The translations under genes and the position numbers were made by a program. 64,000 nt of DNA from Ascidiella aspersa (taxonomy: Eukaryota). How positions within the stretch are numbered: the first letter of the stretch is position 1; the number at the start of each line of letters is the position of its first letter. The notes beneath the pieces are model-generated. The model saw only the letters and a list, made by a program, of their open reading frames with translations. It searched no databases and was not told where the DNA came from. Location: the NCBI GenBank assembly GCA_963924565.1, contig OZ004610.1, positions 3,286,001-3,350,000 on the forward strand. Reading direction: 5' to 3'. Of the stretch, positions 571 to 44,675 are shown in pieces.

Positions 571-2794
571 CCCTTCAAGCGGACTGTATTAGAACAGGAT
601 ACAGGCGAACAACGAATGCGCAGACTAATCATCCATAACGAAACGTTGCCAAGCGATGCAGACTACAGTTTTTTTTATCTTGTACAGTTTTGGATATTAT
701 AAATGCGGAAATGTTTATAACTGTACCAAGTTAATGCGATGTTTATAATTTTACCATAAATAGCAGGTTAAAGACTTTTATTGTTGCTGAAGCCTACCTC
801 AGCGAACATTATTTGGGTTAGGGTGCGGGTTAGCGTTTCGGTTTGGGTAGGAAAAGCAATATTATTAAATAATAATACTTAATTAAACCACCCTCACCCC
901 AGTCTGGAAAGTATGACAGATCACGCGGGTGCACGGCCGAAAAAAATCGGGTAACCGCGTAACCGGGTTCAACAAAGTTAAAAAAGTGCATCTTTCGTCT
1001 GCTTTCAAATTTCCGGACTTCCACGTTATGATTTTCTCATGCACTCTGTATTGCATACATTGCGCTGTAAACGTATAAATAGGGGTGCACGAACGTTTTA
1101 CATGTTTAGGGTGCAGTTCAGATTTTTTTTCGGGGTGCACTTTTGAAAGGTTGAAAAAAACTCGCAGGTGCGCTTCCCATACTTTCCACAGTGGCCCTTA
1201 CCCAAAAAGTAACCAACACCCTGACGCAAATATTGTACCTTGCTGTAATAATTGTTTCAACACTGTGGTAGGACTATACCAGGGCCAAGACTTTTATTGT
1301 TGCTAAAGCTAATAATTCTGTTTCTGGCTATTGACTTCCATCCAAAGTGTTATTAGTTAAAAGACAATATTATTTACATTTACAATGCTAGAAAATAATA
1401 GTTGCAGCTAATTTACTTCATTATAATAAACTTAGTTAGCAAAATTTATGCCAAGGCATATTAAATTAGATAAGATGACCTTTGATTTGCAACTGTATTT
1501 TCTAAAATTTTGTCACCATTATAATGTAAATTAAGTCCTCAACAAATAGTTAATAGGTAATCGTAATATACATATTTGAAATATTATAAATTAAAAGTAA
1601 AGCCCATATTTTGGTGTTAAATTTAACTATGACAATTGGCTATTGTTATGGTGCATATTGCACCTAGTTTGCATTCTGTGGCAGATGCATACCAAATATT
1701 TTTAAAGCAGTTTGTGTGCACACCTCAATAACTAAATTGCACACTTCAGAAAAGGTTGAGTTGTGGTAGGATTTAGAACTTCAGTTATGCCAAAATATGT
1801 CTGCACATCTGGAAATTTGGTGATGTACATCAGATATCTGTGCATCGCTCATTCTTTGAACCACATCTTAGCGTGAATTTCATTTTTGTGGCATATAAAT
1901 CTTAAGGTCTGAAAATATGTTACTTCCTTCTGTTCATGGTGGTCTGAAGGCATACATCCAAACTAATAAAAACTCATGAATATTATGAGTTGTAAAAGTG
2001 ATGTAGTGGTCTCAAGTTGATAAAACATAGCTGCTGCATAAGGTTGTGAAGTTGTAAGAGATAGTGCCCGATAAATTTAAATCGCTTATATATGTTTCAT
2101 GTTTCACTACCTTAGTTGAACTTAATTTTTAACATTTTTGCATTGTTATCTTTCTTCATTAAGGTCATGTACAAGTCATGATTTTAAATAAAATTTTGAA
2201 CTTAAGTTGTTTAATATCTGTAGAAGCCATTTTGTCATATTGTGTTTACACAGAGAATTTTTGTTTTAATCGATGTGTCGTAACGGAAAATTTTCAGTAA
2301 AAATCTATGGCCTAAATTCTTTGTAACCATATTCTAATGTTTACGTTACTCCTTGCAGCCAATGTGCAAACGATAAGCGGAAAGTTTTCGGTAAAATTCC
2401 GTTACGTAGATTTCTTGCAACCACATAATATTTGCAGCGAATTTGCAAAATTCAAATCGTTGACACCAATTTTTATGCGTCAAGTTATTTACATCCGTTT
2501 TTTTTGTATATGTTTCAAAACACCGCGGTCTGAACATTAGTCGGTTTCCCCGGTTGTGTGATTTTAAACTGTTGACATTTTAACTGCAGACAGAGGCTGT
2601 TTCGCAATCGCATTTTGACGTAAAATTTGTATGTTTCGCGTCAGAAATAAGTGTGAAAAAGGTTTAAACCACGCCTTGTTATCACGTGATATTTTGTTAA
2701 GTATTATAAGAATTAATGACGTAAATCTTTTCTTTATCGCAGAAATTTTCTTAACTGATTCTCGTCTATAAATAGCGTGTTCAATCAATATAAA

Positions 2795-3734
2795 ATGGCT
2801 TATATAGCTACTACTCAGACAGCAAACTCGGGTGCTTTTGTGACTGAACCAGATAGAGGCTACTCACCCGAACCGCAGCAAGCGGACAGAACAGGGTTTG
2901 TACGCCGAGAACCAGAGTTCTCGCCAATCAGTTCTGCAAGCTCAGATTCAAGCAGAAATTCTCCTGTCCAGAAGGTACGTAAACCCTTCGTTAATCTTGA
3001 TAGACTTCAAGCATCTACTTCAGCAGCTGCTAATCATACAGCGAAAATACAATTGAGCAAGCCATCTCGAGGTCCAAGAACTCCACCTTTGATTAGACGA
3101 ATTTCAGGATCCAGATCGCCCATAAGATCTAGATCACCATCAAGCAGAAGATCACAATCAAGCAGAAGATCACCACCAATAAGAAGATATCCATCGGAAA
3201 GAAGAAACAATTACAGAAGAAATAGCCACGAACGTTCCCCGGAATCCGAAGATTCTTACGAACTGTATCTCCCGCCAGCTCCAAGACCTTCGTGGCGAAT
3301 CCACGTCCCGTTTAGTGCAGGCACATCAAGAGAGCAAATTGCTTCCGATCGGCTACTTGAAAATCAGGAATCTTGCCCTTTTGTCGATTCTTATTTCAAA
3401 GCTCGTGCAGTAACTACCCAACAAATCAGACTTCAAAACGGTTCTTTTGAGGCCATTATCAAGAGGACGGCCTTTGACCATTTTGCTATTCCTAGCATCA
3501 GAGAATTCCGGCATATCAGCAATATAGACAATCTTGGAATTGTGGCTGTGCATTCTCTGCAAGCCAACAACGAACCAGGAGACGTGTTCGTGTGGCGATC
3601 AAGTCATACTCCAACATCTATTGAAGGCAAGGTCTTAACAGAGACGTTCTTGGCATTAAGAATATTCCTTAGTGTTCCATTACGTCTTGTAACAAGTCTT
3701 GTTACTTCAAATTGGCGCGACCCGAGTGAGGAAC
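2795..3734 (+). CDS. Intronless ORF of unknown function inside the long-TIR element; Ser/Arg-rich N-half and a globular-looking C-half; runs into the gap
   Basis: More than 310 open codons from ATG 2795 (MAYIATTQ...); RSRSPSSRRS-type tract; TATAAATA at 2767; the same N-terminus is mirrored on the minus strand from 3925. Confidence 0.65.
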
Positions 3735-3834
3735 NNNNNNNNNNNNNNNNNNNNNNNNNNNNNNNNNNNNNNNNNNNNNNNNNNNNNNNNNNNNNNNNNN
3801 NNNNNNNNNNNNNNNNNNNNNNNNNNNNNNNNNN
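3735..3834. other. Assembly gap (100 N)
   Basis: Run of exactly 100 N, typical of a placeholder gap of unknown size. Confidence 0.99.
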
Positions 3835-6800
3835 CCGCTTGCTGCGGTTCGGGTGAGTAGCCTCTATCTGGTTCAGTCACAAAAGCACCCGAGTTTGCTG
3901 TCTGAGTAGTAGCTATATAAGCCATTTTATATTGATTGAACACGCTATTTATAGACGAGAATCAGTTAAGAAAATTTCTGCGATAAAGAAAAGATTTACG
4001 TCATTAATTCTTATAATACTTAACAAAATATCACGTGATAACAAGGCGTGGTTTAAACCTTTTTCACACTTATTTCTGACGCGAAACATACAAATTTTAC
4101 GTCAAAATGCGATTGCGAAACAGCCTCTGTCTGCAGTTAAAATGTCAACAGTTTAAAATCACACAACCGGGGAAACCGACTAATGTTCAGACCGCGGTGT
4201 TTTGAAACATATACAAAAAAACGGATGTAAATAACTTGACGCATAAAAATTGGTGTCAACGATTTGAATTTTGCAAATTCGCTGCAAATATTATGTGGTT
4301 GCAAGAAATCTACGTAACGGAATTTTACCGAAAACTTTCCGCTTATCGTTTGCACATTGGCTGCAAGGAGTAACGTAAACATTAGAATATGGTTACAAAG
4401 AATTTAGGCCATAGATTTTTACTGAAAATTTTCCGTTACGACACATCGATTAAAACAAAAATTCTCTGTGTAAACACAATATGACAAAATGGCTTCTACA
4501 TATCAATAGCTGCTTTAAGTTTATTATTACATAATTCGATTACATATTATCATGCCTGGCCAAAGTAATTTATATTTTTGTTTTTCATTATTAAAAAGGT
4601 TTTTATTTCCTGAAATAGCATTTTATATACAGATAATTCCTAGATCTAATATTTCAGTCAACCCCAAAAATGAAAGATTTGTAAGGTGAAAGTGCAAGTA
4701 AAAAGATGTCCCTGGAAGTGTTAAGTAACCTTTAAATCATTGGTAAAGCTCTCTGCATCAAGTCTACACCAATTTTGCCAAGAAACAGCTTCAGTTTCAA
4801 TCCCCACTAACAAACCTTTGTTTAAGAAAGTCAGAGTAAAGGTAATTTCCATTTTGTGTTGTACATTCAAAAACATTAATGTATACCAGCACTTCCCAAC
4901 CCGTTGCCGATGGTTTCCAGGTACCGAACTCGAAAATGTTTTTTTCAATAATCTTTTACAACGGCTTAGCTAATTGAGTCCGCAGTTATTGAAATATATA
5001 ACAACTACAAGGCTATTTAACAAAAACGTGCAAGTAGTTCAGGAGAAATATTGGTGTACCTAACATTTTTAGTATTGTCTAGTGTCGACAAACGAGTCCA
5101 ATCATCTAACGAGGAGAAACAACTAGCGATGAACTCGTGGAGCGTATTTGCAAAAAATCATACAGATATGAAGAAGTGGACAAACATTGAAATGTGTAAT
5201 TATTCTAGACCGGTGGTTACTGTATATTTACCCCGCATCATTTCACAGAATCGTTCGTGATCGCCGCTTAAAACTGCACATAGTAAAATAAACAGATTTG
5301 AAAAATCATATCCAAAATCGCGCCATTGATTGAATCATAGTTCTAACAGGCCGTCTAAAATACCCGGAATGCGATATTTTATTGAAAGATTTTATGGACT
5401 ACGTATACTACATTTATTACGCACCACATTGTGCAATTTTGGAAAAAAATATAAATAGTTTCCTGCTTTATTACACTCTGATTATGGTTTTGTGCCTGGT
5501 TTTTAGCTATTTTCAATTAGTGCTTTAACTGTGAGTTTAATAAAATAAAAACCAACGGTTATGTGTTCCAGTGTTGGTTGACTACAAAAACTAAGCCTAC
5601 TTACAAATAACAGTATTATTGTTAGCTGGTTTTTACACATACATTTTGCGTTTCGTCCTTAGTACTAAAAAAGAGGCCGAACGCTGTATTAAAATAAATA
5701 ATTTTATTAATTACTACATTCAAATTATGTCCGTGTTGGGACGTTCCTTGTTTTATGATTGACGATTAAAAATCAAGCAATATATCCACCGCACAACGCA
5801 GTAAATTAAATACGTGATTTGAGCACACATATTTGTAGTGGTTTAGCGTGCTATCTATTGATTCGAACTATATTTGCCCCTATGGCTTCGTTGTATCCCA
5901 TAGGACTCCAATGGTCCAGCCACAAGATCGAAATGAGAGCAACATCGATGTCGAAATATCACACATTTCGGAATAAGACTAAAATGGGACTAGGACCTAA
6001 TACTCGTAATAACGTATAAACGAAATATGTCCTAAATACGTCTGAATAAGACTTAACTTGCAAGAACCAAGCCTATACAAAATTTCACCTAACCCCGCCC
6101 CTAAGTACATCACAAACCCTTCTAATAATTTTAACTCTAAAATAATTTTCTAACCCTAAACAGGGCCAAAAAATCGATGTCAAAACAGCGAAGCCTTAAC
6201 GGCACCGTTCCATCTAGGGTGCCCAAGCGTCGACACCAAAACGGCCGATGGCCCCTGTTCGTCCCATACCCTCTCCCTTCAGTTTCATACGTTATTTTGG
6301 CCATTAAACGCCCTGTTTCGATGAATTTAGGACTTTTTCCGGCGGGTATGTGTCTTATTCAGGCGATTTAGATGTTATTCTGTCGTGGGTATTAGGCCTA
6401 TTGCGTATTTGGCTTTATTATGTCGTTGGTCTTCATACTATGGTATTATAGATTTTTCTGCTTAATGTATTTTTGCTTTGTAGTTATTATTGTATGTTTC
6501 CATCTGATTCCTATGAAAACTGTCCTAAATGGTGCCAAGGTGTAATGACTGTTAGCGATGGATACAATCGTGTTTATACTTTTAATAGCTTGCGTTACTA
6601 CATGTTGGTCACCTCGGACAAAATTCCGACGTCAACCTGGTTTTAAAATGGCCATATTTTAAAAAAAAATCCATCTCTTTTAGGTTTTAATACTGTTAGC
6701 AATGCTGCATTGAGGCATTGTTTTAACTACGTGTGACGAAACGAAACTAAACAATTATAGTTTGTTCAATGAGAACATGTTATTGACTTGCGTCTAAAAA

Positions 6801-7009: not shown

Positions 7010-7470
7010 TACATTTGTAGAAGATATAAACACAATGATACTTGTACAAAAACTGTTTGTTTACATTTCGTACTTTGTCCGTAATTTTAATTTTGCGCTG
7101 ACCGTTGCAAAGCTGACTTTTTCCAGGTTCGTACCTTTTAAATGCCTATGATGCGCGCTAAGTACCAACGAGTTTTTTAAGTTGGAAAATTAAAACTTAA
7201 ACATTTGTGAAAGACATAAAAACTGAGATTGTTGGTAAAACAACTGTTCGTTTAACTCTTTTCGTTTGACAGTAATTTGACTGCGCGTTAAAGGTCGCAA
7301 AGCTGATTTTTCGCACATCTTCGTGCCTTATAAATTCTTATGATGCGCGCTTATTACAGAACAATTTTTCAAGTTCGAAAATTAAAACTTACACATTTGT
7401 GAAAGAAATAAAAACTGAGATGTTTGGTAAAACAACTGTTCGTTTAACTCTTTTGATTTGACAGTAATTG
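7010..7470. repeat. ~192-bp tandem repeat, about 2.5 copies
   Basis: AAAACAACTGTTCGTTTAACTC recurs at 7237 and 7429. Confidence 0.8.
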
Positions 7471-7975: not shown

Positions 7976-11850
<3,875 letters not shown>

Positions 11851-12100: not shown

Positions 12101-12981
12101 GAACGTCACGCAAGTTTTATTTGTTTTTCGGGTAATGCGCGTTTGGAAAGACCTTATTTATCATTCCTGGGGTTTTAGGGTTACATATATAACAAATAAT
12201 TTGATTTGCCATTTGTCAAATGTTGCAAATAATACCATTAGTTGATAATCACGTTTCGTTTGAAGCTATTTAGTTATGAAATCTGTTAAGTTATGTGGAA
12301 ATAACTAACTCTATATAACTGTTGAGTATACCTTGTGTAGTTAAGTGACCAATAATAACCCACAATTAGCATGTTCCAAAATTGCGCCTGGGGTTTAACT
12401 TATCAAACATAACCCTTGCACATTTCTTGTCCTCTTACTTGTATCTATTTCTATTCACAGATATGGTTTAAGACTTCGGAGTTGTGCCTAGACTTGATTA
12501 CTGAATGTAGATTTCAAAATTGGATATATTAAAATATTTCAGACTGTGCCCTGAGTTGCGAGCTTTAGAGATGAAAATACAGGACGAAAAACAGTTAAAC
12601 CTGATAATAAAGTTACCAGGTTTTGTTAACAGGTGACGGCTTTTATAACATGCAATCAATTTGATTGTTATTAAAATTTCGTCAAATTTACTTAAAGGGG
12701 CAGGGTACCATTCAATTTCCTACAGGACAGGTTATAACAAAATCTATAAGTCAAAATAGGTTGTAGCACAAAAGGCTTTTGTAGGGCTGTCTGTGTTTTA
12801 TCCTTAAGTACAAGTAAGCCAATATTACAAACAAGCTGTGATGGAAATCAAAGGGTAAACCTACTTTACGGCAATAAAATAATAGTGTCAAAACGCAACT
12901 GGAGACCATTATTAGCGGTTTATTGGATCAACATTGCAAATATGAAATAACAGTAAAACATCTTGTCAGGTAGCTATCAAT

Positions 12982-15724
12982 CATCATCATTCAGTGCCAT
13001 GCCTGAACCAGGCTTCGGCTGCCATGAAACACTGTTTTCTCCATATGTTACTATTTCTTGCTAATTCAAAAATATTCTCTGCTTTGATGTTCAAAAAGTC
13101 CCTCAGTTGATTTATAAGCATTTTTCTTTGTCGTCCAGGTGCACGATTTCCACATATTTTGCCACACGAAATTATGAATTCTTGTTTTTGGTGTCTGGTT
13201 ATATGGCCGAAAAACTTGAGTTGTCTAAGTTTTATAGTGCTTAACAGTGATCTCTGTTGATTGGTCTGAATCAGTACCTCTTGATTGGTTTTATGGGACG
13301 TAAAAGATATACGCTGCATTTTCCTCAGGAACCACATCTCAGCGGCACTCAGGTTGTCAATCAGTTCCTTTGTGAAAGTCCAACTTTCACACCCGTAGAG
13401 AAGAACAGGCCACACATAACTTTTAAGAACTCTCACACGGGTATTTACATTTAATTTTTTGTTTGTCAAAATTGACTTGAGATTTATAAAGCAATTTTTT
13501 GCCTGTGCAATTCTGGCTTTAATTTCAGATTTGGACCGACCATCATCTGTAAGTATACAACCAAGGTATCTAAATCTTCGGGTTTGTTTAATTGGTTTAT
13601 CTGAAACTAGTATATTACATTTGTTCACACCTGCTACTTTGGCAATTACCATATATTCTGTTTTATCTTCATTTAAAGCCATTTCCATTTTCACACTTTC
13701 TTCTTCCACTGTTGTTACCATATTTTGAAGCTCCTTCTCGGATGTTGCAATAAGTACCGTATCATCAGCGTACCGAATATTGTTGATGTTTACACCACCA
13801 ACTTTGATCCCTTCTAAGTCAGCTATGCTTCTTAAGATGATTTCGCTATATAAATTGAAAAGGTCTGGAGATAACACACATCCCTGTCGGACACCCTTTT
13901 CTATGGTAATAACTTCGGTTTCGGAGTCTCCCACGCGCACCACTGCATGTTGGTTGTAGTACAGGTTTTGAATGATTCTTAGATCCTTGTCATCAATGTT
14001 GATGTTTTTTAGCATCTGTAGCATCTGCGCATGATTGACCCGATCCAAAGCTTTCCTGTAGTCAAGAAAGCAAACATAAAGTTTTTGTTGCATTTCGATT
14101 GCTCTTTCGCTGAGTATTCTCATCACGTATATCGCATTTCGTGTCCCTTTGTCAGTCATAAACCCATATTGTTCTTCTGCAATTTCTGCATTAATTTTGT
14201 TTTTCATTCGATTCATACATATTCTTAGCAGTAATTTAACAATATGGCTCATAAGGCTTATTGTCCTATAATCTTTGCACTCGATTGCTCCTGCTTTTTT
14301 TGGCAGTGCGACAAAAATCGACTTCCGCATGTCTTGAGGAATTTGACCAGTGTTGTAAATGCTATTTATAAGAAGTAGAAGTAAATTGATTCCAATGTCA
14401 TCCAAAGCCTTCAACACTTCTATTGGAATTTCATCAGGACCAACCGCCTTTCCATTTTTCATGCTAGCCAGGGCTTTCTCAACCTCACATTTCATTACTT
14501 CTGGCCCAGTTAGTGGTTCTTTAAACATAATTGGTGGGGCGTTTCTTGTTGGATCACTGTACAGTTCCTGGGTGTATTCTCGCCAACGATTTTTAATTTC
14601 CTCTTTTTGAAACAAGATCTTTCCGGTTTTACTCTTCACGCAGCCCGATTTTATCCAGTTTTCCTTCTTTCCATTGAGCTGATTAATTTTTTGGTGAGCT
14701 TCTTTCGCGCTGATATTAAAAAGCTTATCTACCTCTTGACATTTTTGATTTAGAAATTCTTCATAAGCAGAGTTGCACTTTAATTTAATACACCTATCTA
14801 ATTCCTTGTACTTCTTAAGATTTCTTTTGGTTCTGCGCCTTTTTTCCAGTAAACCTCTTATTTCATCTGTCATCCAGCTTTGCAAGTTCTCTCTCTGGAC
14901 TTTCGGAAGGTTGTTTTCCATTAATATTCTCAGTGACGTTTTGATTTCCTGGAATATGTCTTCTGGCCAACTCTGTTTTTTGTCATGCAGGTTTTTCAGT
15001 GCATTACCCATTTCATGTTTCAGTACTTCCTGTATTTTTGCATTTTGACAGGCGGCAACATTGTATTGCAGTTTTCTTACCGGTTTTCGACAAATCTTTA
15101 GTTTGGTATAGATATTTGCGACAACAGGTACATGGTCGCTCGAGCAGTCAGCACTTGGATAAGTCTTTGCATTTAAAACACTATTCCTGAAGCGCCTTGA
15201 AAGAGTATGAAACCAACGCCACGCTCATGCTTGCTTCCTCCAGACCATATGATTTTAAATCCTTGTTTAGTAATTTCGCCTTGGTCTGTCCATCTCATTT
15301 CAGATATGCCAAGAATATCAATTTTTAACCTCTTCATCTCCAAAATCACATTTTCCACTTTTCCTTTCTGATGCATGGTTCGTACATTCCATGTTGCAAT
15401 CCTTTTTAACTTTGATTGGTTTCGACGAGTAGCTGAATGACGATCGGGTATGACCTGACGAACATCATGATCCCTACCGAGCGAGATAACTGCTCCTGAC
15501 TGGAGTTGGTTACCGTTAACGCTGTTTTCGTTTAATTTTTTTCTATCAGTGTTCATTCATGTTGACTAGGCAAAGAATTACAAGGATGGTTTGCCATTGC
15601 CTTTCCTTGCCGACCCCTGCATTTAGCCAGCCTAACTGTTTCCGTCCGACACCACGAGGAGGTATGCAGTAGGACTTGGGAGTGTTTTCTACGAGAACAA
15701 ACAACCCCCCATTTTTTGACGGAC
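12982..15724 (-). mobile_element. RTE-clade non-LTR retrotransposon (APE endonuclease + RT), near full length with an internal deletion in the endonuclease
   Basis: RT motifs GVRQGCVLSP and NIRYADDTVL; APE motifs IATWNVRTM, DILGISEMRW, SDH; (ATG)n 3' tail; 10-bp TSD AGCTATCAAT at 12972-12981 and 15725-15734; empty site at ~25906. Confidence 0.93.
12987..15556 (-). pseudogene. RTE ORF: APE N-terminus (15173-15556) frameshifted from the APE C-terminus plus RT (12987-~15200)
   Basis: GVGFIL is followed directly, in another frame, by FRNSVLNAKTYPSADCSSDHVPV, which is in frame with the 674-aa RT ORF; the central APE motifs are missing. Confidence 0.85.
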
Positions 15725-17269
15725 AGCTATCAATAGAAAGGTTTAAAAAAATGAAAAATGTGCATGTAGCCATAGTCTAAAATTAGTGCTTTAACTGTGA
15801 GTTTAATAAAATAAAAACCAACGGTTATGTGTTCCAGTGTTGGTTGACTACAAAAACTAAGCCTACTTACAAATAACAGTATTATTGTTAGCTGGTTTTT
15901 ACACATTTTGCGTTTCGTCCTTAGTACTAAAAAAGAGACGAACGGTGTATTAAAATAAATAATTTTATTAATTACTACATTCAAATTATGTCCGTGTTGG
16001 GACCTTCCTTGTTTTATGATTGACGATTAAAAATCAAGCAATATATCCACCGCACAACGCAGTAAATTAAATACGTGATTTGAGCACACATATTTGTAGT
16101 GGTTTAGCGTGCTATCTATTGATTCGAACTATATTTGCCCCTATGACTTCGTTGTATCCGATAGGACTCCAATGGTCCAGCCACAAGATCGAAATGAGAG
16201 CAACATCGATGTCGGAATATCACACATTTCGGAATAAGACTAAAATGGGACTAGGACCTAATACTCGTAATAACATATAAACGAAATATGTCCTAAATAC
16301 GTCGGAATAAGACTTAACTTGCAAGAACCAAGCCTATACAAAATTTCACCTAACCCCGACCCTAAGTACATCACAAACCCTTCTAATAATTTTAACTCTA
16401 AAATAATTTTCTAACTCTAAGCAGGGCCAAAAAATCGATGTCAAAACAGCGAAGCCTTAACAGCACCGTTCCATCTAGGGTGCCCAAGCGTCGACACCAA
16501 AACGGCCGATGGCCCCTGTTCGTCCCATACCCTCTCCCTTCAGTTTCATACGTTATTTTGGCCATTAAACGCCCTGTTTCGATGAATTTAGGACTTTTTC
16601 CGGCGGGTATGTGTCTTATTCAGGCGATTTAGATGTTATTCTGTCGTGGGTATTAGGCCTATTGCGTATTTGGCTTTATTATGTCGTTGGTCTTCATACT
16701 ATGGTATTATAGATTTTTCTGCCTAATGTATTTTTGCTTTGTAGTTATTATTGTATGTTTCCATCTGATTCCTATGAAAACTGTCCTAAATGGTGCCAAG
16801 GTGTAATGACTGTTAGCGATGGATACAATCGTGTTTATACTTTTAATAGCTTGCGTTACTACATGTTGGTCACCTCGGACAAAATTCCGACGTCAACCTG
16901 GTTTTAAAATGGCCATATTTTTTAAAAAAATCCATCTCTTTTAGGTTTTAATACTGTTAGCAATGCTGCATTGAGGCATTGTTTTAACTACGTGTGACGA
17001 AACGAAACTAAACAATTATGGTTTGTTGAATGAGAACATGTTATTGACTTGCGTCTAAAAATATTGCTATTCACAATATTTGTCAAAAGTTAAAATGCTT
17101 TGTATTAATGCACATTTCAACATACTAAACCATGCACGTTAAAGATTTTCATCCTGGCAGCTGCACAGCCGACAATTTTCTGCGAGAGCCTGTGGTTTTT
17201 TTAATGCTCATATATACGTCTTAAGTATACCGGTACTCAAAGTGTACTTCAGTTAAAAATGAGCAACTT

Positions 17270-18112
17270 TTACATTTGTAGAAGATATAAACACAATGAT
17301 ACTTGTACAAAAACTGTTTGTTTACATTTCGTACTTTGTCCGTAATTTTAATTTTGCGCTGACCGTTGCAAAGCTGACTTTTTCCACGTTCGTACCTTTT
17401 AAATGCCTATGATGCGCGCTAAGTACCAACGAGTTTTTTAAGTTGGAAAATTAAAACTTAAACATTTGTGAAAGACATAAAAACTGAGATTGTTGGTAAA
17501 ACAACTGTTCGTTTAACTCTTTTCGTTTGACAGTAATTTGACTGCGCGTTAAAGGTCGCAAAGCTGATTTTTCGCACATCTTCGTGCCTTATAAATTCTT
17601 ATGATGCGCGCTTATTACAGAACAATTTTTCAAGTTCGAAAATTAAAACTTACACATTTGTGAAAGAAATAAAAACTGAGATGTTTGGTAAAACAACTGT
17701 TCGTTTAACTCTTTTCATTTGACAGTAATTTGACTGCGCTTTAAAGGTCGCAAAGCTGACTTTTCGCACATGGTCGTGCCTTATAAATGCTTATGATGCG
17801 CGCTTATTACAGAACAATTTTTCAAGTTGGAAAATTAAAACTTACACATTTGTGAAAGAAATAAAAACTGAGATTTTTGGTAAAACAACTGTTCGTTTAA
17901 CTCTTTTCGTTTGACAGTAATTTGACTGCGCGTCAAGGTCACAAAGCTGATTTTTCGCACATCTTCGTTCCTTATAAATTCTTATGATGCGCGTTTAGTA
18001 CAGAAGAATTTTTCAAGTTGGGAAATTAAAATTTACAAATTTGGGAAAGACATATAAACTGAGATGTTTGATAAAACAACTGTTCGTTTAACTCTTTTCG
18101 TTTGACAGTAAT
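17270..18112. repeat. ~192-bp tandem repeat, about 4.5 copies (also at ~33255-34097)
   Basis: Motif recurs at ~17498, 17690, 17882 and 18073. Confidence 0.85.
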
Positions 18113-18621
18113 TGCTATTTATTGCAAGCGAATCGTGGCTGGTTTGCGACGCAAATTGAATTAAGCCTTTTCGAAGCGGGCGAGTTACTCATTCGCGTTT
18201 CATAAAATGGCTTTTAATGGTATCCTTTTTTAAGCGAAATATTGCCATAAGAAACAGGATATTGGACATAAAATGCCCGGAATCGTACTAAAACACCGCT
18301 AATAATTTGGTTATTTATAGCTTCCTTTTACAATTGCTGGAATTGCATCAATTTATAATCCTATGGAAATCGTGTCAACTTTATAGAAGCACCTACTTAA
18401 ATATAGGTTGATGTGCAACTTATCATTCACTTGCAAGGCAGGACAAACTGAGTATCGGTGATTTCAGTTGTATTTAAGAGCTTAAAGAGCGAAAAGGGAA
18501 AGAAACAATAAAAAGATAGGAAGACCGCAAAATCTCCGTCGGGTTTAAGTTAAAAATAAAAAGTGGTTTACTTGTTTAAACAAAGGCAAGAAAAATGATT
18601 TGTTGTTTTGTTGCTGACGTT

Positions 18622-19508
<887 letters not shown>

Positions 19509-19559
19509 TTTGATAGTTGATGTGGTTGATCATAGTAGAATATACAAACAACAGCTTTG

Positions 19560-19900
19560 CAGACCGAGACAGGGTTTTACAGCAATTTTACGAGCTTTAT
19601 CACCGCTGAACTGTTAAGGCGTGAGGGAGCCGTGTGGGTTATATATCGCGGGCGGTTGCGAAACTGGCGGGATCTTTGCGTTTTTCGCGTGGCGTAATAC
19701 AGCAAACAGAGGCTTCACGCCGCGCGCGCTCTCGAGTGCTATTTTGTTGATGGAGTTTTGACAATTCAGAGCTAGACGAGCGCATCCTTCAATCTGATTG
19801 GTCGACTTCGCGCGGCATCCCGACGTGAAATTGTTGCAGCATCGCGCGACCTACTCACTCCATGGCAATACCAATAAAGCCTTTCAAAGAACCCGCGTGG
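19560..19900 (-). promoter_or_regulatory. CpG-rich promoter of the P1 tubulin paralog with a TATA-like element
   Basis: Minus-strand TATATAA at ~19639-19645, about 135 bp upstream of the ATG; CpG-rich context; CCAAT at ~19797-19801. Confidence 0.45.
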
Positions 19901-20919
19901 AAGGACTACGCCTGACTGATCGCGCCTTTTCATACCGAACAATGCCACGGGTGCGACACAAAAACCGAAAGGCGAATGTAATTTGGCGAAGCTGGTCAAA
20001 CCTTACTGTAGTCGGCCGCCCACTCGGATCTTCCGTGCAAAGATAATGTTGACACAAAGTCTGATATTTTCAGGGCTTGTAAATAATGTGTTCATCTCTC
20101 TGGGTTACCGGGTTCTATTTAATGGGCGTGGGGAGATTGATGTGTTTACCGGCAACAGTTTAAATATTTGTAAAGTAATTCGTTTGTAAAGAACGACAAA
20201 CCACCCCCCATACTTTGGAATCACTGCAACTAAGGGGCGATAAACTACGACTTTTTGCGTCGGATATTTACCGCAATGCTTTCGCAGTTTATTTTCTCAA
20301 ATGATGATTTCCCGTAGTTACATGTTTGAGTTCATAGAATTCAGTGGTTCCCAACCTTACTGTTCTCGCGACCTTTTTCAAGTTTTCGATATGTTGCGTG
20401 ACCTTCAAATATATTGCGTATGATACGTAAACCAGGGTCAATTAAAAACACATTTCAAAATTGGAAAAAAATTTAGACGGATTGTATTAAAATTTGGTTA
20501 AAATGTCTGGATTTCAGTTTGCACAAGATAAAGTTTGAGGGTTCTACTATTTTTATTATACATTGTTTGACTGAAGCTACGCTTGTTTCATTAATTAAAA
20601 ACTGTAATGGTGACGGTCGGTTGCTTTTGCTCCTAATTGGTTATATTTTATTGGTTCCCAATATCTTGCGGGTGACGACAACCACTAAATAGATGAGAGT
20701 TTAAATAACAAAGATTCCTTTTCTTAACTCTTTATACTTTACTTAAGGAGTCAGTTTTAATCGACCCGAAGCATCAAGTTAATGATTCACTCAAGCGATA
20801 AAAGCACTTTGGACTTGCAACAACACGAAGCTCAAAACCAAACATATGGAGCAAAATTAAACAAGGACGTTTTGTTTGTTAAACTTTTATTTCTTCAAGG
20901 CGAATTGAAAAACGCGAGT

Positions 20920-24790
<3,871 letters not shown>

Positions 24791-26490
24791 TATTCTGAAT
24801 TAGTAGATCGAAGATTTTCAAGCAAATTTGCGCAGAGGAACGAGACACAGCTTTACGATGTGACTTCACCACTGAATGTGCGGAAAACTCGTGAGTGTTT
24901 GTCTGATGTGTCTGGGCGACTATGACGTAATAGTAAACAGTGTTGTTTCGGCCCTGATTGAACAAGATTTAGGTAACTTAAGGCTTTTGATTGGTTGTTA
25001 TTTGTTCTAAATTAGATAATGTTATTGGTTGAAAATTATTTGAACGTCACGTAAGTTTTATTTGTTTTTCGGGTAATGCGCGTTTGGAAAGACCTTATTT
25101 ATCATTCTTGGGGTTTTAGGATTACATATATAACAAATAATTTGATTTGCCATTTGTCAAATGTTGCAAATAATACCATTAGTTGATAATCACGTTTCGT
25201 TTGAAGCTATTAAGTTATGAAATCTGTTAAGTTATGTGGAAATAACTAACTCTATATAACTGTTGAGTATACCTTGTGTAGTTAAGTGACCAATAATAAC
25301 CCACAATTAGCATGTTCCAAAATTGCGCCTGGGGATTAACTTATCAAACATAGCCCTTGTACATTTCTTGTCCTCTTAGTTGTATCTATTTCTATTCACA
25401 GACAAGGTTTAAGACTTCAAAGTTGTGCCTAGACTTGATTACTGAATGTAGATTTCAAAATTGGATATATTAAAATATTTCAGACTGTGCCCTGAGTTGC
25501 GAGCTTAAGAGATTAAAATACAGGACGAAAAACAGTTAAACCTGATAATAAAGTTCCCAGGTTTTGTTAACAGCTGACGGCTTTTATAACACGCAATCAA
25601 TTTGATTGTTATTAAAATTTCGTCAAATTTACTTAAAGGGGCAGGGCACCATTCTATTTCCTACAGGACAGGTTATAACAAAAGCTATAAGTCAAAATAG
25701 GTTGTAGCACAAAAGGCTTTTGTAGGGCTGTCTGTGTTGTATCCCTAAGTAAAAGTAAGCCAATATTACAAACAAGATGGAAATCAAAGGGTATTTACTT
25801 TACGGCAATAAAATAATAGTGTCAAAAAGCAACTGGAGACCATTATTAGCGGTTTATTGGATCAACATTGCAAATATAAAATAACGGTAAAACATCTTGT
25901 CAGGTAGATATCAATGGAAAGGTTTAAAAAAATGAAAAATGTGCATGTAGCCATAGTCTAAAATTGATCGTTCCGATTATAATGGATGGTGTTTCATATA
26001 ACATAGCGTGTGTTGCTCGACCTAAGCCACGATTTATACCACAGCACGAAATTTTTCCTGACATGGAATCGATATTAGTCTGTTTCCAGCAACTAGGCAC
26101 TCAGTCGGTCACTAGAAGGTTGTTAAGTACGTCGTACTTTAAGCCCCTTAAAAAGCTGGCAGGGCGGTATCAAAGAGCGACACATGATACCGAACTGAAT
26201 TGTATCAAATCTAATCAACTGGGATTTTAATTTGTGTCAAGCGAACGACGCCGTCATACGATAAGTTGTGTAATGTAATTACGCAGCGTTGCTCGAATGC
26301 TTGAATTCATTATTATAAGAGCGTTTCAATTTAAAGGTTTTCTACAAAAAGGACCACTCTTTTAAATTCGAATTTAAATCGCTGTGATAGCTTTGTTTAC
26401 ACGATTTCACCCAAGCAATTATCCGCATTTCCAGGGCTTAAGTAACGCGAATTAAAGAGCATATTAAAAAGCAGGTCTTGTACGTATTAG

Positions 26491-28292
26491 GTGTCTTGCT
26501 GCGACATGCCGTACCGCCGGGAAAGAAAGCACAAAGCCAATTTGTTTGGCCTCTTATCGCTCGGCAAACATGGGTGCGGTGTAATCGCCCAGCAACCAGC
26601 AGACCAAAACTGCTTTCAGCTATCATCCAAACGAGCCTGGCTTCGTATGTTGTCTGCTGTGGCTTGTACTTGTGTATTTGTTGCCCTGGCTACATTCGAA
26701 TCACAGCGATTAGGCCATCCAGCTGCCTGGCGTACACTGCTGGCAAGTGCAATCGATAAGCCTTTGTTTAGGCAAGGCGCTTTCGGTCTCGCAACATACA
26801 GTCGCTTGGTCAAGGGTGCTGAATCTGACGGTACAGCTCTCACCGAATTAAAACTGAGTAAAAGGTAAGACCCCATTATTCACACAAAAAACACATACCG
26901 CGCTGGTTTAACCTAATGCAAATCTTTAACTTTGTATGTTTTCGTCAATCGTATTCGTTTCAAATAATAGGTTTTCCCAATTATATTGTCGGTAATGTGA
27001 AATAGAAGTTTTAGTTCTTGACAAAACTTATTTCTGAGTTATAAGGTTACGCGTTGGTATATTAAATTATGGAATACGTTGCAGGTTTTTGAATACATAT
27101 CTAGTTTAACTTAATAGTGTATTGGCACTTGACGAAAAAATCGATAGTTATATCACCTAAAAAGAAGGTCATATGAAATTGTATTTAGTGTCAGGGATTT
27201 TATTCTACAACAAAAAAATAAGTTCAATTAATATTTATTTAACCTAAAAAAGCTTTATTGCGCACATATACATCCAAACCGGCGCTGCTGAACGATTTAA
27301 GATTACCTTTATTGCACAACCTAGTGGTGGAAATATAGGTCTACCGCTGGATAAACATCTTTTAAAAATATTTTTAGTATAAGCAATTGTCGAATGGAAG
27401 TGTGCAATTGTATTTCCATCTGTGAAAGAAAGTAATTAGATCATAAAAAGTTTCTGTATGGCAATTCTCAAAAAGTGAGCCGAATTTAAAGTTGTTTTAC
27501 CGAACAAAAAACTTTAGTTTGACATTTTACCAAAGCAGAACACCATACAACCAAGCTAATAGCGTTTGGGATCGGCATCTGTTGAACTTATTTTAAAACA
27601 ATATGTTTATTCATCGTGTTTCTACTTATAGGTTCAAATCACTCCAGAAACGAAGTTTAATGCAAGTCAAAGATCCGCATAACATCTGCAGTATTTCAGT
27701 TACGCCAGCACAATTTCAATACGTCATAGTTGATGACGTAAACAAGGTAAAAGTAAAATAAGTAAGGCACTTCTCTCAATATTTTAGTTCGTTTAATTTT
27801 TCCTAATGCAATTTTTTTAAATTAACGGCAGTTTTTGAAATAAAAATCGGTTCGCGTGGACCTGGGTCTTAAATTACTTAACAATTAGAATTTAAAAAAC
27901 TACAAAACAATTATAATTTTAAAACTTGCTGTTTTTCGGTCAAACTTACGCGTTAATATGAAAGTAAAATTGAGTCTAAATACATTCAAGCAGAAGGCAC
28001 CAAAAGCATTATTGTCAATGTACTTGTTTCTCTGTAAGTCCACGGATCACAGGTTAAGAACCCCTGACTTAAAGGTAGAGAACTGAAGGTATGCTCTTGC
28101 ATTTGCAAATTATTTTATTTCGTTGTAGGTTTTGTTTTGCTAAGTGTCGAAGGCAGGGAACAGCCATTGGAAAGCAGTTATGGCAGTTTTGGGAGGTTCA
28201 CTGAAAAATTTAGACCACTCACGTCGCTATGGCAACGTGTCAGATGTTCCAGTTAGAACGGGATCACCAAAACATGAGCCGGAATTTTTCAA
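26491..28292 (+). pseudogene. Carbohydrate sulfotransferase (Sulfotransfer_2, CHST8-14-like) 5' fragment; exons ~26491-26864, 27632-27746, 28129-~28292
   Basis: GT-AG exons splice in phase to a hydrophobic type-II anchor (WLRMLSAVACTCVFVALATF) and ...QYVIVDDVNKVLFC*VSKAGNSHWKAVMAVLGG, resembling the family's IVDD..K.L.C..PK....WK 5'-PAPS-binding motif; in-frame TAA at 28141. Confidence 0.75.
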
Positions 28293-28692
28293 GTAGGTCC
28301 CATAAAATGGCGTAATTTGTTAACAGTTTGTTATTGCGTTTAGTAGATCCAATCTGTTCCCTATGTATTAAACATTAAAGCAAGAAAAGCAATTAATATT
28401 TATAGGATTTCGCGATTTTATTTAAAAATCGTTTTCTCAGAAGTGATAATGAAAGTTTTACGATCAGATTAAAGTGAAACTTTAATAACAGCTTTACATT
28501 TTTAGTTTGGCTGATAAAACTGTACAGCAAACTGTAATACGAACATATACACCGCACGCGCAATTGGGCGCACACACATTTTAGCCCTGGCTGGTGAAAT
28601 TCCCACAGGGCGCCACAAAACGAGGTGCTGGTAGAAATCGAACTGCTGCTTGCCTTCTACTTAAAAAAGGTCAACTTAAGCTTCGTGCCTTA

Positions 28693-28984
28693 AGGCCCGT
28701 TTACACTACAGCTGCACTGAGCTGCGCTGGGCGTGAAGTTGTTTTCACTACAGCTGCGCTGAGCCGAGCTGGGCGTAAAAATCGCTCCAAACGTAACGTA
28801 TTTCTATAGCTGCACTGGGCTTGAGTTTAGCAAAGCATGAAATCGCTCCAAAGCATAACTTTAAGCTAGCTGCAGCTGCTGCATGGGGTTTGAGTTTAGC
28901 AAAGCGTGACACGCTCGCCACAATAGAATTTAAATGCAAATTACACTTTGCTCAGCTCGGTGCAGCTGTAGTGTAAACGGGCCT
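28693..28984. mobile_element. PIF/Harbinger-type (Tourist-like) MITE
   Basis: TIR AGGCCCGTTTACACTACAGCTGCAC ... GTGCAGCTGTAGTGTAAACGGGCCT; 3-bp TSD TTA. Confidence 0.85.
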
Positions 28985-31900
28985 TTATTGCCAAACATGG
29001 CGCTGCCACCCGATTCGATTTGTTTTCAGCGCTTGTAGCGCTCGTATTAGAATAATTCGGGACTTTGAAGCGTCTATGTTAGAACATGTGTTAAAATTTG
29101 GACGCTTCAAGTGGACTGTATTAGAACAGGATACAGGCGAACGGCGAATGCGCAGACTAACCATGCATAACGAAACGTTGCCAAGCGATGCAGACTACAG
29201 TTTTTTATCTTGTACAGTTTCGGATATTATAAATGCGGAAATGTTTATAACTGTACCAAGTTAATGCGATGTTTATAATTTTACCGAGTAAATAGCAGGT
29301 GAAAGACTTTTATTGTTGCTGAAGCCTACCTCAGCGAACATTGTTTGGGTTAGGGTGCGGGTTAGCGTTTCGGTTTGGGTAGGTTAAAAGCAATATTATT
29401 AAATAATAATACTTAAACTACCCTCACCCCAGTCTGGAAAGTATGACAGATCACGCGGGTGCACGGCCGAAAAAATTCGGGTGACCGGGTAATCGGGTTC
29501 AACAAAGTTAAAAAAGTGCATCTTTCGTCTGCTTTCAAATTTCCGGACTTTCACGTTATGATTTTCTCATGCACTCTGTATTGCATACATTGCACTGTAA
29601 ACGTATAAATAGGGGTGCACAGACGTTTTACATGTTTACGGTGCAATTCAGATTTTTTTCGGGCTGCACTTTTGAAAGGTTGAAAAAAACTCGCAGGTGC
29701 ACTTCCCATGCTTTCCACAGTGGCCCTCACCCAAACAGCAACCAACACCCTGACGCAAATATTGCACCTTGCTGAAATAATTGTTTCAACACTGTGGTAG
29801 GACTATACCAGGGCCAAGACTTTTATTGTTGCTAAAGCTAATAATTCTGTTTCTGGCTATTAACTTCCATTCCAAAGTTTTATTAGTTAAAAGACAATAT
29901 TATTATTTATTTATTCATTTGCAATGCTAGAAAATAATAGTTGCAGCTAATTTACTTCATTATAATAAACTTAGTTAGCAAAATATATGCCAAGAAATAT
30001 TGAATTAGATAAGATGACATTTGTTTTGCAACTGTATTTTCTAAAATTTGGTCGCCATTATAATGTAAATTAAGTCCTCAAGAAATAGTTAGTAGGTAAT
30101 CGTAATATACATATTTGAAATATTACAAATTAAAAGAAAAGCTCATATTTTGGTGTTAAATTTAACTTTGACACTTGGCTATTGTTATGGTGCATATTGC
30201 ACCTAGTTTTCATTCTGTGGCAGATGCATACCAAATATTTTTAAAACAATTTGTGTGCACACCTCAATAACTAAATTGCACACTTTAGAAAAGGTTGTGG
30301 TAGGATTTAGAACTTCAGTTATGCCAAAATATGTCTGCACATCTGGAAATTTGGTGATGTACATCAGATATCTGTGCATCGCACATTCTTTGAACCACAT
30401 CTTAGTGTGAATTTCAATTTTGTGGCATATAAATCTTAAGGTCTGAAAATATGTTACTTCCTTCTGTTCATGGTGGTCTGAAGGCATACATCCAAACTAA
30501 TAAAAACTCATGAATATTTTTAGTTGTAAAAGTGTTGTAGTGGTCTCAAGTTGATAAAACATAGCTGCTGCATAAGGTTGCAAAGTTGTAGGGAATAGTG
30601 CCCGATAAATTTAAATTGCTTATATGTTTCATGTTTCACTACCTTAGTTGAACTTAATTTTTAACATTTTTGCATTGTTATCTTTCTCCATTAAGGTCAT
30701 GTACAAGTCATGATTTTGAATAAAATTTTGAACTTAAGTTGTTTAATATCAATAGCTGCTTTAAGTTTATCATTACATAATTCGATTACATATTATCATG
30801 CCTGGCCAAAGTAATTTATATTTTTGTTTTTCATTATTAAAAAGGTTTTTATTTCCTGAAATAGCATTTTATATACAGATAATTCCTAGATCCAATATTT
30901 CAGTCAACCCCAAAAATGAAGGACTTTGTAAGGTGAAAGTGCAAGTAAAACTATGTCCCTGGAAGTGTTAAGTAACCTTTAAATCATTGGTAAAGCTCTC
31001 TGCATCAGGTCTACACCAATTTTCCAAAAAACAGCTTCAGTTTTCATCCCCACTAACAAACCTTTGTTTAAGAAAGTCAGAGAAAAGGTAATTTCCATTT
31101 TGTGTTGTACATTCAAAAACATTAATGTATACCAGCACTTCCCAACCCGTGGCCGATGGTTTCCAGGTACCGAACTCGAAAATGTTTTTTTCAATAATCT
31201 TTTACAACGGCTTAGCTAATTGAGTCCGCAGTTATTGAAATATATAACAACTACAAGGCTATTTAATAAAAACCTGCAAGTAGTTTAGGAGAAATATTGG
31301 TATACCTAACATTTTTAGTATTGTCTAGTGTCGACAAACGAGTTCAATCATCTAACGAGGAGAAACAACTAGCAATGAACTCGTGGCGCGTATTTGCAAA
31401 AAATCATACAGTGATGAAGAAGAGGACAAACATTGAAATGTGTAATTATTCTAGCACGGTGGTTACTGTATATTTACCCCGCATCATTTCACAGAATCGT
31501 TCGTGATCGCCGCTTGAAACTGCACACGGTAAAATAAACAGATTTGAAAAATCATATCCAAAATCGCGCCATTGATTGAGTCATAGTTCAACAGGCTGTC
31601 TAAAATACCCGGAATGCGATATTTTATTGAAAGATTTTATGGACTACGTATGCTACTTTTATTACGCACCACATTGTGCAATTTAAAAAAAAATATAAAT
31701 AGTTTCCTGCTTTATTACACTCTGATTATGGTTTTGTGCCTGGTTTTTAGATATTTTCAATTAGTGCTTTAACTGTGAGTTTAATAAAATAAAAACCAAC
31801 GGTTATGTGTTCCAGTGTTGGTTGACTACAAAAACTAAGCCTACTTACAAACAACAGTATTTTTGTTACCGGTAGCTGATTTTCACACATTTTGCGTTTC

Positions 31901-34606
31901 GTCCTTAGTACTAAAAAAGAGGCCGAACGCTGTATTAAAATAAATAATTTTATTAATTACTACATTCAAATTATGTCCGTGTTGGGACGTTCCTTGTTTT
32001 ATGATTGACGATTAAAAATCAAGCAATATATCCACCGCACAACGCAGTAAATTAAATACGTGATTTGAGCACACATATTTGTAGTGGTTTAGCGTGCTAT
32101 CTATTGATTCGAACTATATTTGCCCCTATGACTTCGTTGTATCCGATAGGACTCCAATGGTCCAGCCACAAGATCGAAATGAGAGCAACATCGATGTCGG
32201 AATATCACACATTTCGGAATAAGACTAAAATGGGACTAGGACCTAATACTCGTAATAACATATAAACGAAATATGTCCTAAATACGTCGGAATAAGACTT
32301 AACTTGCAAGAACCAAGCCTATACAAAATTTCACCTAACCCCGACCCTAAGTACATCACAAACCCTTCTAATAATTTTAACTCTAAAATAATTTTCTAAC
32401 CCTAAGCAGGGCCAAAAAATCGATGTCAAAACAGCGAAGCCTTAACAGCACCGTTCCATCTAGGGTGCCCAAGCGTCGACACCAAAACGGCCGATGGCCC
32501 CTGTTCGTCCCATACCCTCTCCCTTCAGTTTCATACGTTATTTTGGCCATTAAACGCCCTGTTTCGATGAATTTAGGACTTTTTCCGGCGGGTATGTGTC
32601 TTATTCAGGCGATTTAGATGTTATTCTGTCGTGGGTATTAGGCCTATTGCGTATTTGGCTTTATTATGTCGTTGGTCTTCATACTATGGTATTATAGATT
32701 TTTCTGCCTAATGTATTTTTGCTTTGTAGTTATTATTGTATGTTTCCATCTGATTCCTATGAAAACTGTCCTAAATGGTGCCAAGGTGTAATGACTGTTA
32801 GCGATGGATACAATCGTGTTTATACTTTTAATAGCTTGCGTTACTACATGTTGGTCACCTCGGACAAAATTCCGACGTCAACCTGGTTTTAAAATGGCCA
32901 TATTTTTTAAAAAAATCCATCTCTTTTAGGTTTTAATACTGTTAGCAATGCTGCATTGAGGCATTGTTTTAACTACGTGTGACGAAACGAAACTAAACAA
33001 TTATGGTTTGTTGAATGAGAACATGTTATTGACTTGCGTCTAAAAATATTGCTATTCACAATATTTGTCAAAAGTTAAAATGCTTTGTATTAATGCACAT
33101 TTCAACATACTAAACCATGCATGTTAAAGATTTTCATCCTGGCAGCTGCACAGCCGACAATTTTCTGCGAGAGCCTGTGGTTTTTTTAATGCTCATATAT
33201 ACGTCTTAAGTATACCGGTACTCAAAGTGTACTTCAGTTAAAAATGAGCAACTTTTACATTTGTAGAAGATATAAACACAATGATACTTGTACAAAAACT
33301 GTTTGTTTACATTTCGTACTTTGTCCGTAATTTTAATTTTGCGCTGACCGTTGCAAAGCTGACTTTTTCCACGTTCGTACCTTTTAAATGCCTATGATGC
33401 GCGCTAAGTACCAACGAGTTTTTTAAGTTGGAAAATTAAAACTTAAACATTTGTGAAAGACATAAAAACTGAGATTGTTGGTAAAACAACTGTTCGTTTA
33501 ACTCTTTTCGTTTGACAGTAATTTGACTGCGCGTTAAAGGTCGCAAAGCTGATTTTTCGCACATCTTCGTGCCTTATAAATTCTTATGATGCGCGCTTAT
33601 TACAGAACAATTTTTCAAGTTCGAAAATTAAAACTTACACATTTGTGAAAGAAATAAAAACTGAGATGTTTGGTAAAACAACTGTTCGTTTAACTCTTTT
33701 CATTTGACAGTAATTTGACTGCGCTTTAAAGGTCGCAAAGCTGACTTTTCGCACATGGTCGTGCCTTATAAATGCTTATGATGCGCGCTTATTACAGAAC
33801 AATTTTTCAAGTTGGAAAATTAAAACTTACACATTTGTGAAAGAAATAAAAACTGAGATTTTTGGTAAAACAACTGTTCGTTTAACTCTTTTCGTTTGAC
33901 AGTAATTTGACTGCGCGTCAAGGTCACAAAGCTGATTTTTCGCACATCTTCGTTCCTTATAAATTCTTATGATGCGCGTTTAGTACAGAAGAATTTTTCA
34001 AGTTGGGAAATTAAAATTTACAAATTTGGGAAAGACATATAAACTGAGATGTTTGATAAAACAACTGTTCGTTTAACTCTTTTCGTTTGACAGTAATTGC
34101 TATTTATTGCAAGCGAATCGTGGCTGGTTTGCGACGCAAATTGAATTAAGCCTTTTCGAAGCGGGCGAGTTACTCATTCGCGTTTCATAAAATGGCTTTT
34201 AATGGTATCCTTTTTTAAGCGAAATATTGCCATAAGAAACAGGATATTGGACATAAAATGCCCGGAATCGTACTAAAACACCGCTAATAATTTGGTTATT
34301 TATAGCTTCCTTTTACAATTGCTGGAATTGCATCAATTTATAATCCTATGGAAATCGTGTCAACTTTATAGAAGCACCTACTTAAATATAGGTTGATGTG
34401 CAACTTATCATTCACTTGCAAGGCAGGACAAACTGAGTATCGGTGATTTCAGTTGTATTTAAGAGCTTAAAGAGCGAAAAGGGAAAGAAACAATAAAAAG
34501 ATAGGAAGACCGCAAAATCTCCGTCGGGTTTAAGTTAAAAATAAAAAGTGGTTTACTTGTTTAAACAAAGGCAAGAAAAATGATTTGTTGTTTTGTTGCT
34601 GACGTT

Positions 34607-35493
<887 letters not shown>

Positions 35494-36904: not shown

Positions 36905-40773
<3,869 letters not shown>

Positions 40774-44275: not shown

Positions 44276-44675
44276 GTAGGTCCCATAAAATGGCGTAATT
44301 TGTTAACAGTTTGTTATTGCGTTTAGTAGATCCAATCTGTTCCCTATGTATTAAACATTAAAGCAAGAAAAGCAATTAATATTTATAGGATTTCGCGATT
44401 TTATTTAAAAATCGTTTTCTCAGAAGTGATAATGAAAGTTTTACGATCAGATTAAAGTGAAACTTTAATAACAGCTTTACATTTTTAGTTTGGCTGATAA
44501 AACTGTACAGCAAACTGTAATACGAACATATACACCGCACGCGCAATTGGGCGCACACACATTTTAGCCCTGGCTGGTGAAATTCCCACAGGGCGCCACA
44601 AAACGAGGTGCTGGTAGAAATCGAACTGCTGCTTGCCTTCTACTTAAAAAAGGTCAACTTAAGCTTCGTGCCTTA

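Follow-up and report, generated by a model that had tools for sequence, protein, structure and literature searches.

What kind of element has inserted itself into the alpha-tubulin gene array of Ascidiella aspersa, leaving two nearly identical inverted ends that each carry the start of the same gene? The locus lies in a stretch of 64,000 nucleotides (assembly GCA_963924565.1, contig OZ004610.1, positions 3,286,001 to 3,350,000 of the forward strand), which is called the window below and from whose first letter all positions are counted. An earlier note on this DNA had described an unclassified mobile element at 2219–4500, with TGT...ACA ends, a 4-bp target-site duplication and gene-bearing terminal inverted repeats (TIRs) whose interior is lost in an assembly gap. 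We confirm that the insertion is real and its coordinates are right, and we read it, with a probability of roughly 45%, as a DNA element inserted by a Ginger2-type integrase that has true long, promoter-bearing TIRs and a cargo other than the transposase.

Boundaries of the insertion

The insertion is delimited by the following features.

2215–2218, plus strand: target-site duplication, left copy TATC (from the junction and the empty-site comparison)
2219–2885, plus strand: left TIR arm, matchable part, at least 667 nt, starting TGTAG (from the arm alignment)
3835–4500, minus strand: right TIR arm, 666 nt, cut by the gap, ending CTACA (from the arm alignment)
4501–4504, plus strand: target-site duplication, right copy TATC (from the junction and the empty-site comparison)
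30746–30751, plus strand: empty site in the second repeat unit, 6-mer ATATCA (from the comparison of the units)
46734–46739, plus strand: empty site in the third repeat unit, near-identical to the second (from the comparison of the units)

Self-comparison gives one long inverted repeat within the window, 2216–2885 against 4503–3835. When the two arms are aligned base by base there are no substitutions at all, and the sole difference is one homopolymer T (eight at 2498–2505, seven in the right arm). The element begins with TGTAGAAG and ends with CTTCTACA, and its terminal 10-mer is unique within the window. In the two empty units a single, uninterrupted TATC (30747–30750 and 46735–46738) stands between the matching flanks, and both element junctions are consistent with this sequence. 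A fold-back chimera of the flank is ruled out, as the right junction continues into the empty-site sequence. The near-identical inverted arms of at least 667 bp that the earlier note reported are thus borne out, and sequence and empty sites agree on its ends and duplication. Its empty site in two paralogous units is present in both; because these units are 99.67% identical over 16.9 kb, the pair amounts to about one independent observation.

The register of the duplication is ambiguous. It is 4 bp long with the symmetric TGT/ACA ends, 5 bp (ATATC) if the ends are allowed to be asymmetric with a CTAC end, and 6 bp if one mismatch is accepted; the most parsimonious of the three is the symmetric one of 4 bp. 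Against the empty units, the sequences flanking the insertion have identities of 94.4% and 97.7%. Arms without substitution inside flanks that have drifted by 2–6% indicate that the insertion is young, that is younger than the duplication of the units, or that the arms have been homogenised. It is also conceivable that the filled and empty units are alleles that the assembly put in tandem, which would leave the empty-site argument unaffected. The element lies between genes, about 3.5 kb downstream of where the closest tubulin copy has its 3′ end.

The arm and the reading frame that starts in it

Each arm consists of a non-coding outer part followed by the beginning of an open reading frame (ORF).

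2219–2794, plus strand: promoter-like non-coding part of the arm, of predicted function (promoter reading inferred from motifs and CpG)
2795–3734, plus strand: orphan ORF of at least 313 amino acids, open into the gap (from the ORF call and composition)
3836–3925, minus strand: ORF codons 1–30, right-arm copy, pointing inward (tblastn, 30/30 identical)

The outer 576 nt of each arm are non-coding, with a G+C content (GC) of 33%. Their observed-to-expected ratio of CpG, 1.75, exceeds that of all 54 equal-size host windows (mean 1.01, maximum 1.69). Among the motifs, which were selected post hoc with the sequence already in view, TGACGTAA occurs twice, at 2616 and 2717 (3.5 per kb vs 0.13 in the host background), CACGTG once at 2683, and TATAAA at 2767, 28 nt upstream of the ATG at 2795; we take these to be CRE-like, E-box and TATA motifs, respectively. 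Judged from its sequence, each arm would hold a putative RNA polymerase II promoter. A scan for sigma-70 promoters, the wrong type for this host, gave 2 sites vs 3.5 expected.

The ORF starts 576 nt inside the element and is still open after 313 codons where it runs into the gap. This length was reached in none of 3000 shuffles of the ORF region (maximum 222) and in none of 2000 shuffles of the left segment (maximum 199). Its GC is 45% vs 34–35% in the flanks, and GC at third codon positions is 0.33 vs 0.62 in a host tubulin exon. Residues 1–85 form a disordered N-terminus and residues 86–152 a basic, low-complexity tract of Ser, Arg and Pro (net charge +15; 18 Arg, 17 Ser, 10 Pro), for which three 18-nt repeats at 3131–3188 code. 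Residues 166–313 are 34% hydrophobic and probably form a folded domain. The basic tract, which presumably resembles viral core and SR-type proteins, suggests that the product may bind DNA or RNA. HHCC and CCHC motifs are absent from the 313 amino acids, which contain a single Cys. Near the end of the visible frame, 30 nt short of the gap, there is a 17-nt near-perfect hairpin (3689–3705, of the GTAACAAG-CTTGTTAC type), the longest self-match of the left segment.

The earlier note saw in each arm a promoter-like region with the start of an inward ORF and suggested diploid terminal genes. Motifs and codons 1–30 are indeed found in both arms; the promoter is a prediction, and the second gene copy is unproven beyond these 30 codons, the rest of the frame being seen in the left contig alone.

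The ORF was compared with a wide range of collections. Pfam and PHROGs gave no family for either of two ORF queries, NCBIfam gave none for the ORF, and PDB sequences gave no match at E ≤ 10. Residues 166–313 found nothing at E ≤ 0.001 among 1.84 billion cluster representatives, and a word-index search with residues 150–313, covering proteins of similar or greater length, confirmed 0 of 201 near-length and 0 of 7114 longer candidates. There was no match to phage records by tblastn or to plasmids by blastn, none of 92 pattern hits in GTDB genomes was confirmed, and Rfam had no match within the window. In the ESM Atlas, C-terminal clusters of heparinase II/III (0.91–0.92) were rejected as chance-level (128–135 of 256 features shared, recognition score below threshold), and after skipping this family nothing was found. 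Two single-sequence AlphaFold2 models reached mean pLDDT values of 35.3 and 35.0; Foldseek with the first of them against viral structures gave nothing at E ≤ 0.001, a result that is uninformative at a pLDDT of about 35. As a control, the RTE retroposon of the host's own genome returned 823 hits, with a best identity of 52% among the 120 matches listed. Because even this element finds no closer relative among those matches, the null results for the ORF are weak, and its orphan status is in part a sampling effect, the mobile-element proteins of this host being poorly covered.

The integrase and the kind of element

Symmetric TG...CA ends together with a 4-bp duplication are the signature of retroviral-type integrases, and we consider it very likely that a real insertion by such an integrase is present here. 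Ginger2 transposons have TGTNR ends, a 4-bp duplication (5 bp in Tdd), a preference for RTATAY targets, transposases with an H2C2 finger and TIRs of 45–297 bp in Table 2 of PMC2836005. The element shares with Ginger2/Tdd the TGTNR termini (TGTAG at both ends), the 4-bp duplication (TATC/TATC, in one insertion), an invertebrate host and an AT-rich target. It differs in its TIRs of at least 666 bp as assembled and in an ORF that starts within the TIR and whose 313 amino acids have neither an H2C2 finger nor an integrase match. Ginger1 likewise has TGTNR ends and a 4-bp duplication, with TIRs of about 40–270 bp; however, 99% of its duplications are CCGG or CCGT/ACGG (PMC2836005), and it is ruled out by the TATC target. 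The claims of the earlier note that ends and duplication are of the retroviral-integrase type and that the TIRs are far longer than those of described Ginger elements therefore hold, the former narrowed to Ginger2/Tdd as the closest signature.

In the reading that we prefer, a retroviral-type DDE integrase of the Ginger2/Tdd kind, its type assigned by analogy with known families, would process the TGT...ACA ends and join them to an AT-rich site, and filling in of a 4-nt staggered cut would give the TATC duplication. Both ends would be long identical arms of at least 666 bp, each with an RNA polymerase II promoter and an inward gene start; the arm gene would encode a basic, probably nucleic-acid-binding protein not recognisable as a transposase, and the integrase itself would be encoded in the missing interior or supplied in trans. 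The element would most likely be a multi-gene, cargo-carrying one, either a large transposon or an integrating DNA virus. Protein function, promoter activity and the size and content of the interior are what we infer, not what is seen.

Several points weigh against this reading. No usable homologue of the ORF came from any sequence or structure search that was run, and genes for an integrase, polymerase, ATPase, capsid or other viral hallmark are absent from the 2.2 kb of readable element sequence; the ORF is visible to residue 313, and a transposase could start further inward. One insertion cannot fix the length of the duplication. The empty 6-mer ATATCA agrees with RTATAY at 4 of 6 positions, as do 12.7% of all window positions, which makes this agreement weak. 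TGT...ACA ends are moreover not diagnostic, being found also in IS481EU of parabasalids (PMC10045372) and, with 2-bp duplications, in fungal PlavakaA (PMC12730594), and Gypsy ends too are TGTNR (PMC2836005). Finally, the left and right contigs stop only 1516 and 666 nt inside the element, as they also would if a compact palindrome had broken the reads.

This last point concerns the following feature.

3735–3834, no strand: assembly gap of 100 N in place of the interior, whose real size is not represented by the N count (from the run of N)

It is the sole run of N in the window. The assembly keeps apart 16-kb units differing by 0.3%, which points to long accurate reads behind it. It resolves a 16.9-kb tandem duplication of 99.67% identity with 0 of 4 indels in homopolymers, yet breaks inside the element, as expected from a long or multi-copy interior. 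The gap is nevertheless no proof of a large interior. Compact near-palindromes and other long palindromes can break long reads as well, and the break can come from such a structure, from a long or multi-copy interior or from a contig end over-extended by the assembler. With three possible causes for the break, the "large" of the earlier note is one of three possibilities, and an autonomous or viral nature of the element is no more than a hypothesis. The left contig continues for 849 nt (2886–3734) beyond the matched arm, which may be further TIR or unique interior. Similar difficulties are on record for Teratorn, which was likewise absent from a draft genome (PMC5601938, PMC10175614), and for the EMALE virophages, whose TIRs are a source of assembly problems (PMC8547959).

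The architecture is less without precedent than the earlier note suggested, as neighbouring designs exist. EMALE virophages of Cafeteria have TIRs of 0.2–2.3 kb and duplications of mostly 3–5 bp (PMC8547959), ranges into which the element falls; unlike it they reside in a protist and depend on giant viruses, and there is no sequence match. Nimaviruses of sesarmid crabs (265–285 kb) carry a Ginger2-like integrase and have a 46-bp TIR starting GTTG and (AT)n targets (PMC10871703). What they have in common with the element is the notion of a large DNA carried into AT-rich invertebrate sites by an integrase of the Ginger2 type; TIR length, terminal bases and target differ, and no sequence link is evident. 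Teratorn, a fusion of piggyBac and a herpesvirus, has transposase-type ends and long inverted repeats that draft assemblies left unclosed, but CCYT ends, a TTAA duplication and a fish host (PMC5601938). MuDR and related MULEs share long TIRs with promoters driving convergent genes; they differ in TIRs of 100–500 bp, duplications of 9–11 bp and their plant hosts (PMC3310237), and a MULE is ruled out by the 4-bp duplication. Papers PMC6431247, PMC3575427, PMC4455052 and PMC8502044 describe no closer system in the excerpts available. A literature search by titles and the beginnings of abstracts, with Repbase Reports and most subscription journals outside its scope, found no animal element with TGT...ACA ends, a 4-bp duplication and TIRs above 600 bp. 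Every single feature thus has a precedent in another system, and it is the combination that is unusual.

Could the element be a Polinton, Maverick or adintovirus with variant ends? Such an element would be 13–25 kb long and self-synthesising, with pPolB, an rve integrase, an ATPase and capsid genes, and the orphan gene that begins in the TIR would be an accessory one. The TIR size fits, as Polinton TIRs are given as 46–1447 bp (PMC8097293) or 100–1500 bp (bioRxiv 10.1101/2023.08.22.554363); integration of the rve type and intronless orphan accessory genes are common ground; TGTAG is one base off AGTAG, and a longer duplication can be forced. However, both ends are TGT/ACA (TGTAGA/TCTACA), whereas (AGT)2, (AG)3 and (AC)3A are the motifs given for vertebrate Mavericks (PMC8097293), and none of the three is present. 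The exact symmetric duplication is 4 bp, with 5 bp needing asymmetric ends and 6 bp a mismatch, against a range of 5–8 bp (bioRxiv 10.1101/2023.08.22.554363), and the visible ORF matches neither a core gene nor any other Polinton protein. We therefore regard a Polinton as unlikely. Far less credible is a retroelement, be it with head-to-head ends of Gypsy-type long terminal repeats (LTRs) or of the DIRS kind, with the ORF as Gag. Gag-like ORF1 proteins often have a basic low-complexity N-terminus, and the TGTNR ends of Gypsy elements have been mentioned. A direct-LTR retrotransposon is ruled out: the arms are inverted and no direct repeat of the arm was found in the window, the primer-binding pattern CA-N(0-4)-TGG has no occurrence in 2219–2900, and no poly(A) signal (AATAAA/ATTAAA) precedes the ORF in 2219–2794. 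The TATA box just 28 nt upstream of the ATG likewise speaks against a retroelement. In DIRS elements the inverted terminal repeats measure 66–316 bp, diverge in their outer parts and bear terminal extensions; the ends are mostly NTT, and a duplication is lacking (PMC3266345). These elements are ruled out by the TATC duplication, by ends that are not NTT and by outer ends that match to the last base. The best match between the outer element end and 2886–3734, looked at for a DIRS internal complementary region, is 9 nt. The rejection of DIRS and of canonical Polinton ends by the earlier note stands.

Two further explanations keep the insertion and reduce its novelty. In the one, a Ginger2-type element would have given rise to a compact, non-autonomous fold-back derivative: one end was copied onto the other together with its promoter and a gene, captured or accessory, giving a near-palindrome of a few kb that breaks reads. 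The contig ends so close inside the element and the known effect of palindromes fit this; EMALE TIRs regenerate after truncation (PMC8547959), and coding sequence within TIRs is reported for Turmoil-1 (PMC2572040). The ORF, however, remains open across 313 codons, the left segment (2219–3734) has no palindrome centre, its longest self-match being 17 nt, and the duplication shows that a two-ended unit itself integrated, so that we find this explanation rather improbable. In the other, the element would be an ordinary Ginger2 element with a TIR of 45–300 bp, whose right arm the assembler had over-extended with left-end sequence taken from the same or a different copy. The insertion would then be real but its long, gene-bearing TIR artefactual. 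In favour of this, the right arm is a contig end at the 100-N gap, and it hardly differs from the left one. The one-base difference means that it is no literal copy, the substitution-type differences by which the 99.67%-identical units are kept apart argue for long accurate reads, and both junctions fit the empty site, which is unexpected of a simple fold-back chimera; such an artefact seems more improbable still.

Turning back to insertion by a Ginger2-type integrase, the element fits none of the families compared here, the TIRs lying outside the Ginger2 size range and the ends differing from those of canonical Polintons. A bolder version, which we regard as doubtful, would make it a large integrating DNA virus or a giant transposon, hitherto undescribed, that resides in invertebrates, has acquired a Ginger2-type integrase and was recently active. 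Its TIRs would be of kilobase scale, each arm with a CRE/TATA promoter and a full copy of the gene, whose basic, Ser/Arg-rich product would belong to a new family of nucleic-acid-binding proteins, perhaps acting as a core or early regulatory protein. The Polinton integrase has been proposed to derive from Ginger-type integrases, which at least one lineage of large DNA viruses has also captured (PMC10871703, PMC6431247, PMC10175614). Were the element active, its combination of Ginger2 ends, Polinton-sized TIRs and orphan cargo would mark it as an intermediate between Ginger and Polinton or as another independent fusion of an animal virus with an integrase; in the bolder version it would add one more independent virus–transposase fusion to those of Polintons, Teratorn and the sesarmid nimaviruses. 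A small interior or an over-extended arm would instead make it a minor Ginger2 derivative. The surprising part of the element is exactly the part in the gap, and the 666-nt arm is a clean probe for further copies, duplications and interiors in the host genome.

The tubulin array and other repeats

Intron-containing alpha-tubulin genes form an array on the minus strand of the window (7977–63200), with four apparently complete copies at about 10890–7980, 23830–20930, 39810–36910 and 63200–58490 and introns at about codons 1, 76, 111, 176, 342 and 407. Two further copies, at 18626–19304 and 34611–35289, are 5′-truncated and frameshifted. Directly downstream of tubulin 3′ ends there is a 192-bp tandem repeat in 2 to 4 copies (7107–7469, 17368–18113, 33353–34098). 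The 16.9-kb tandem duplication comprises 15781–32643 and 31759–48631; 41 substitutions and 4 indels are concentrated at both ends of the alignment. The duplication may have occurred recently, or the assembly may have placed two haplotypes one after the other. Its unit contains a stop-free frame of 125 codons (26491–26868 and 42474–42851) without NCBIfam match, which is probably no gene.

The RTE-type non-LTR retroposon used as control lies 8 kb from the element, on the minus strand at 12972–15734, and is largely intact. It has a 10-bp duplication, AGCTATCAAT, at 12972–12981 and 15725–15734, a short (ATG)n tail, a coding region in two frames (127 amino acids at 15173–15556 and 745 at 12987–15224) and an empty site at about 25906–25915. 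The 7-mer TATCAAT hosts both this retroposon and the TIR element (empty at 25909 and 30747, filled at 4501, 12975 and 15728); as noticed post hoc, the two empty positions are its only plus-strand occurrences in the 16-kb unit 15781–31758. This is probably a coincidence of two AT-rich target preferences.

At 1–573 lies the end of another insertion, with 10-bp CCATTCGGTA repeats and the terminus GTACCACCCC, which is absent at the counterpart in the second unit (about 29105). A palindromic MITE-like family (miniature inverted-repeat transposable element) of about 200 bp with GGCGCTGGTCTAGAATCC ends is represented at 63636–63836 and 51167–51373 and by partial copies at about 790–900, 11083–11260, 24022–24200, 54466–54688 and 57000–57245.

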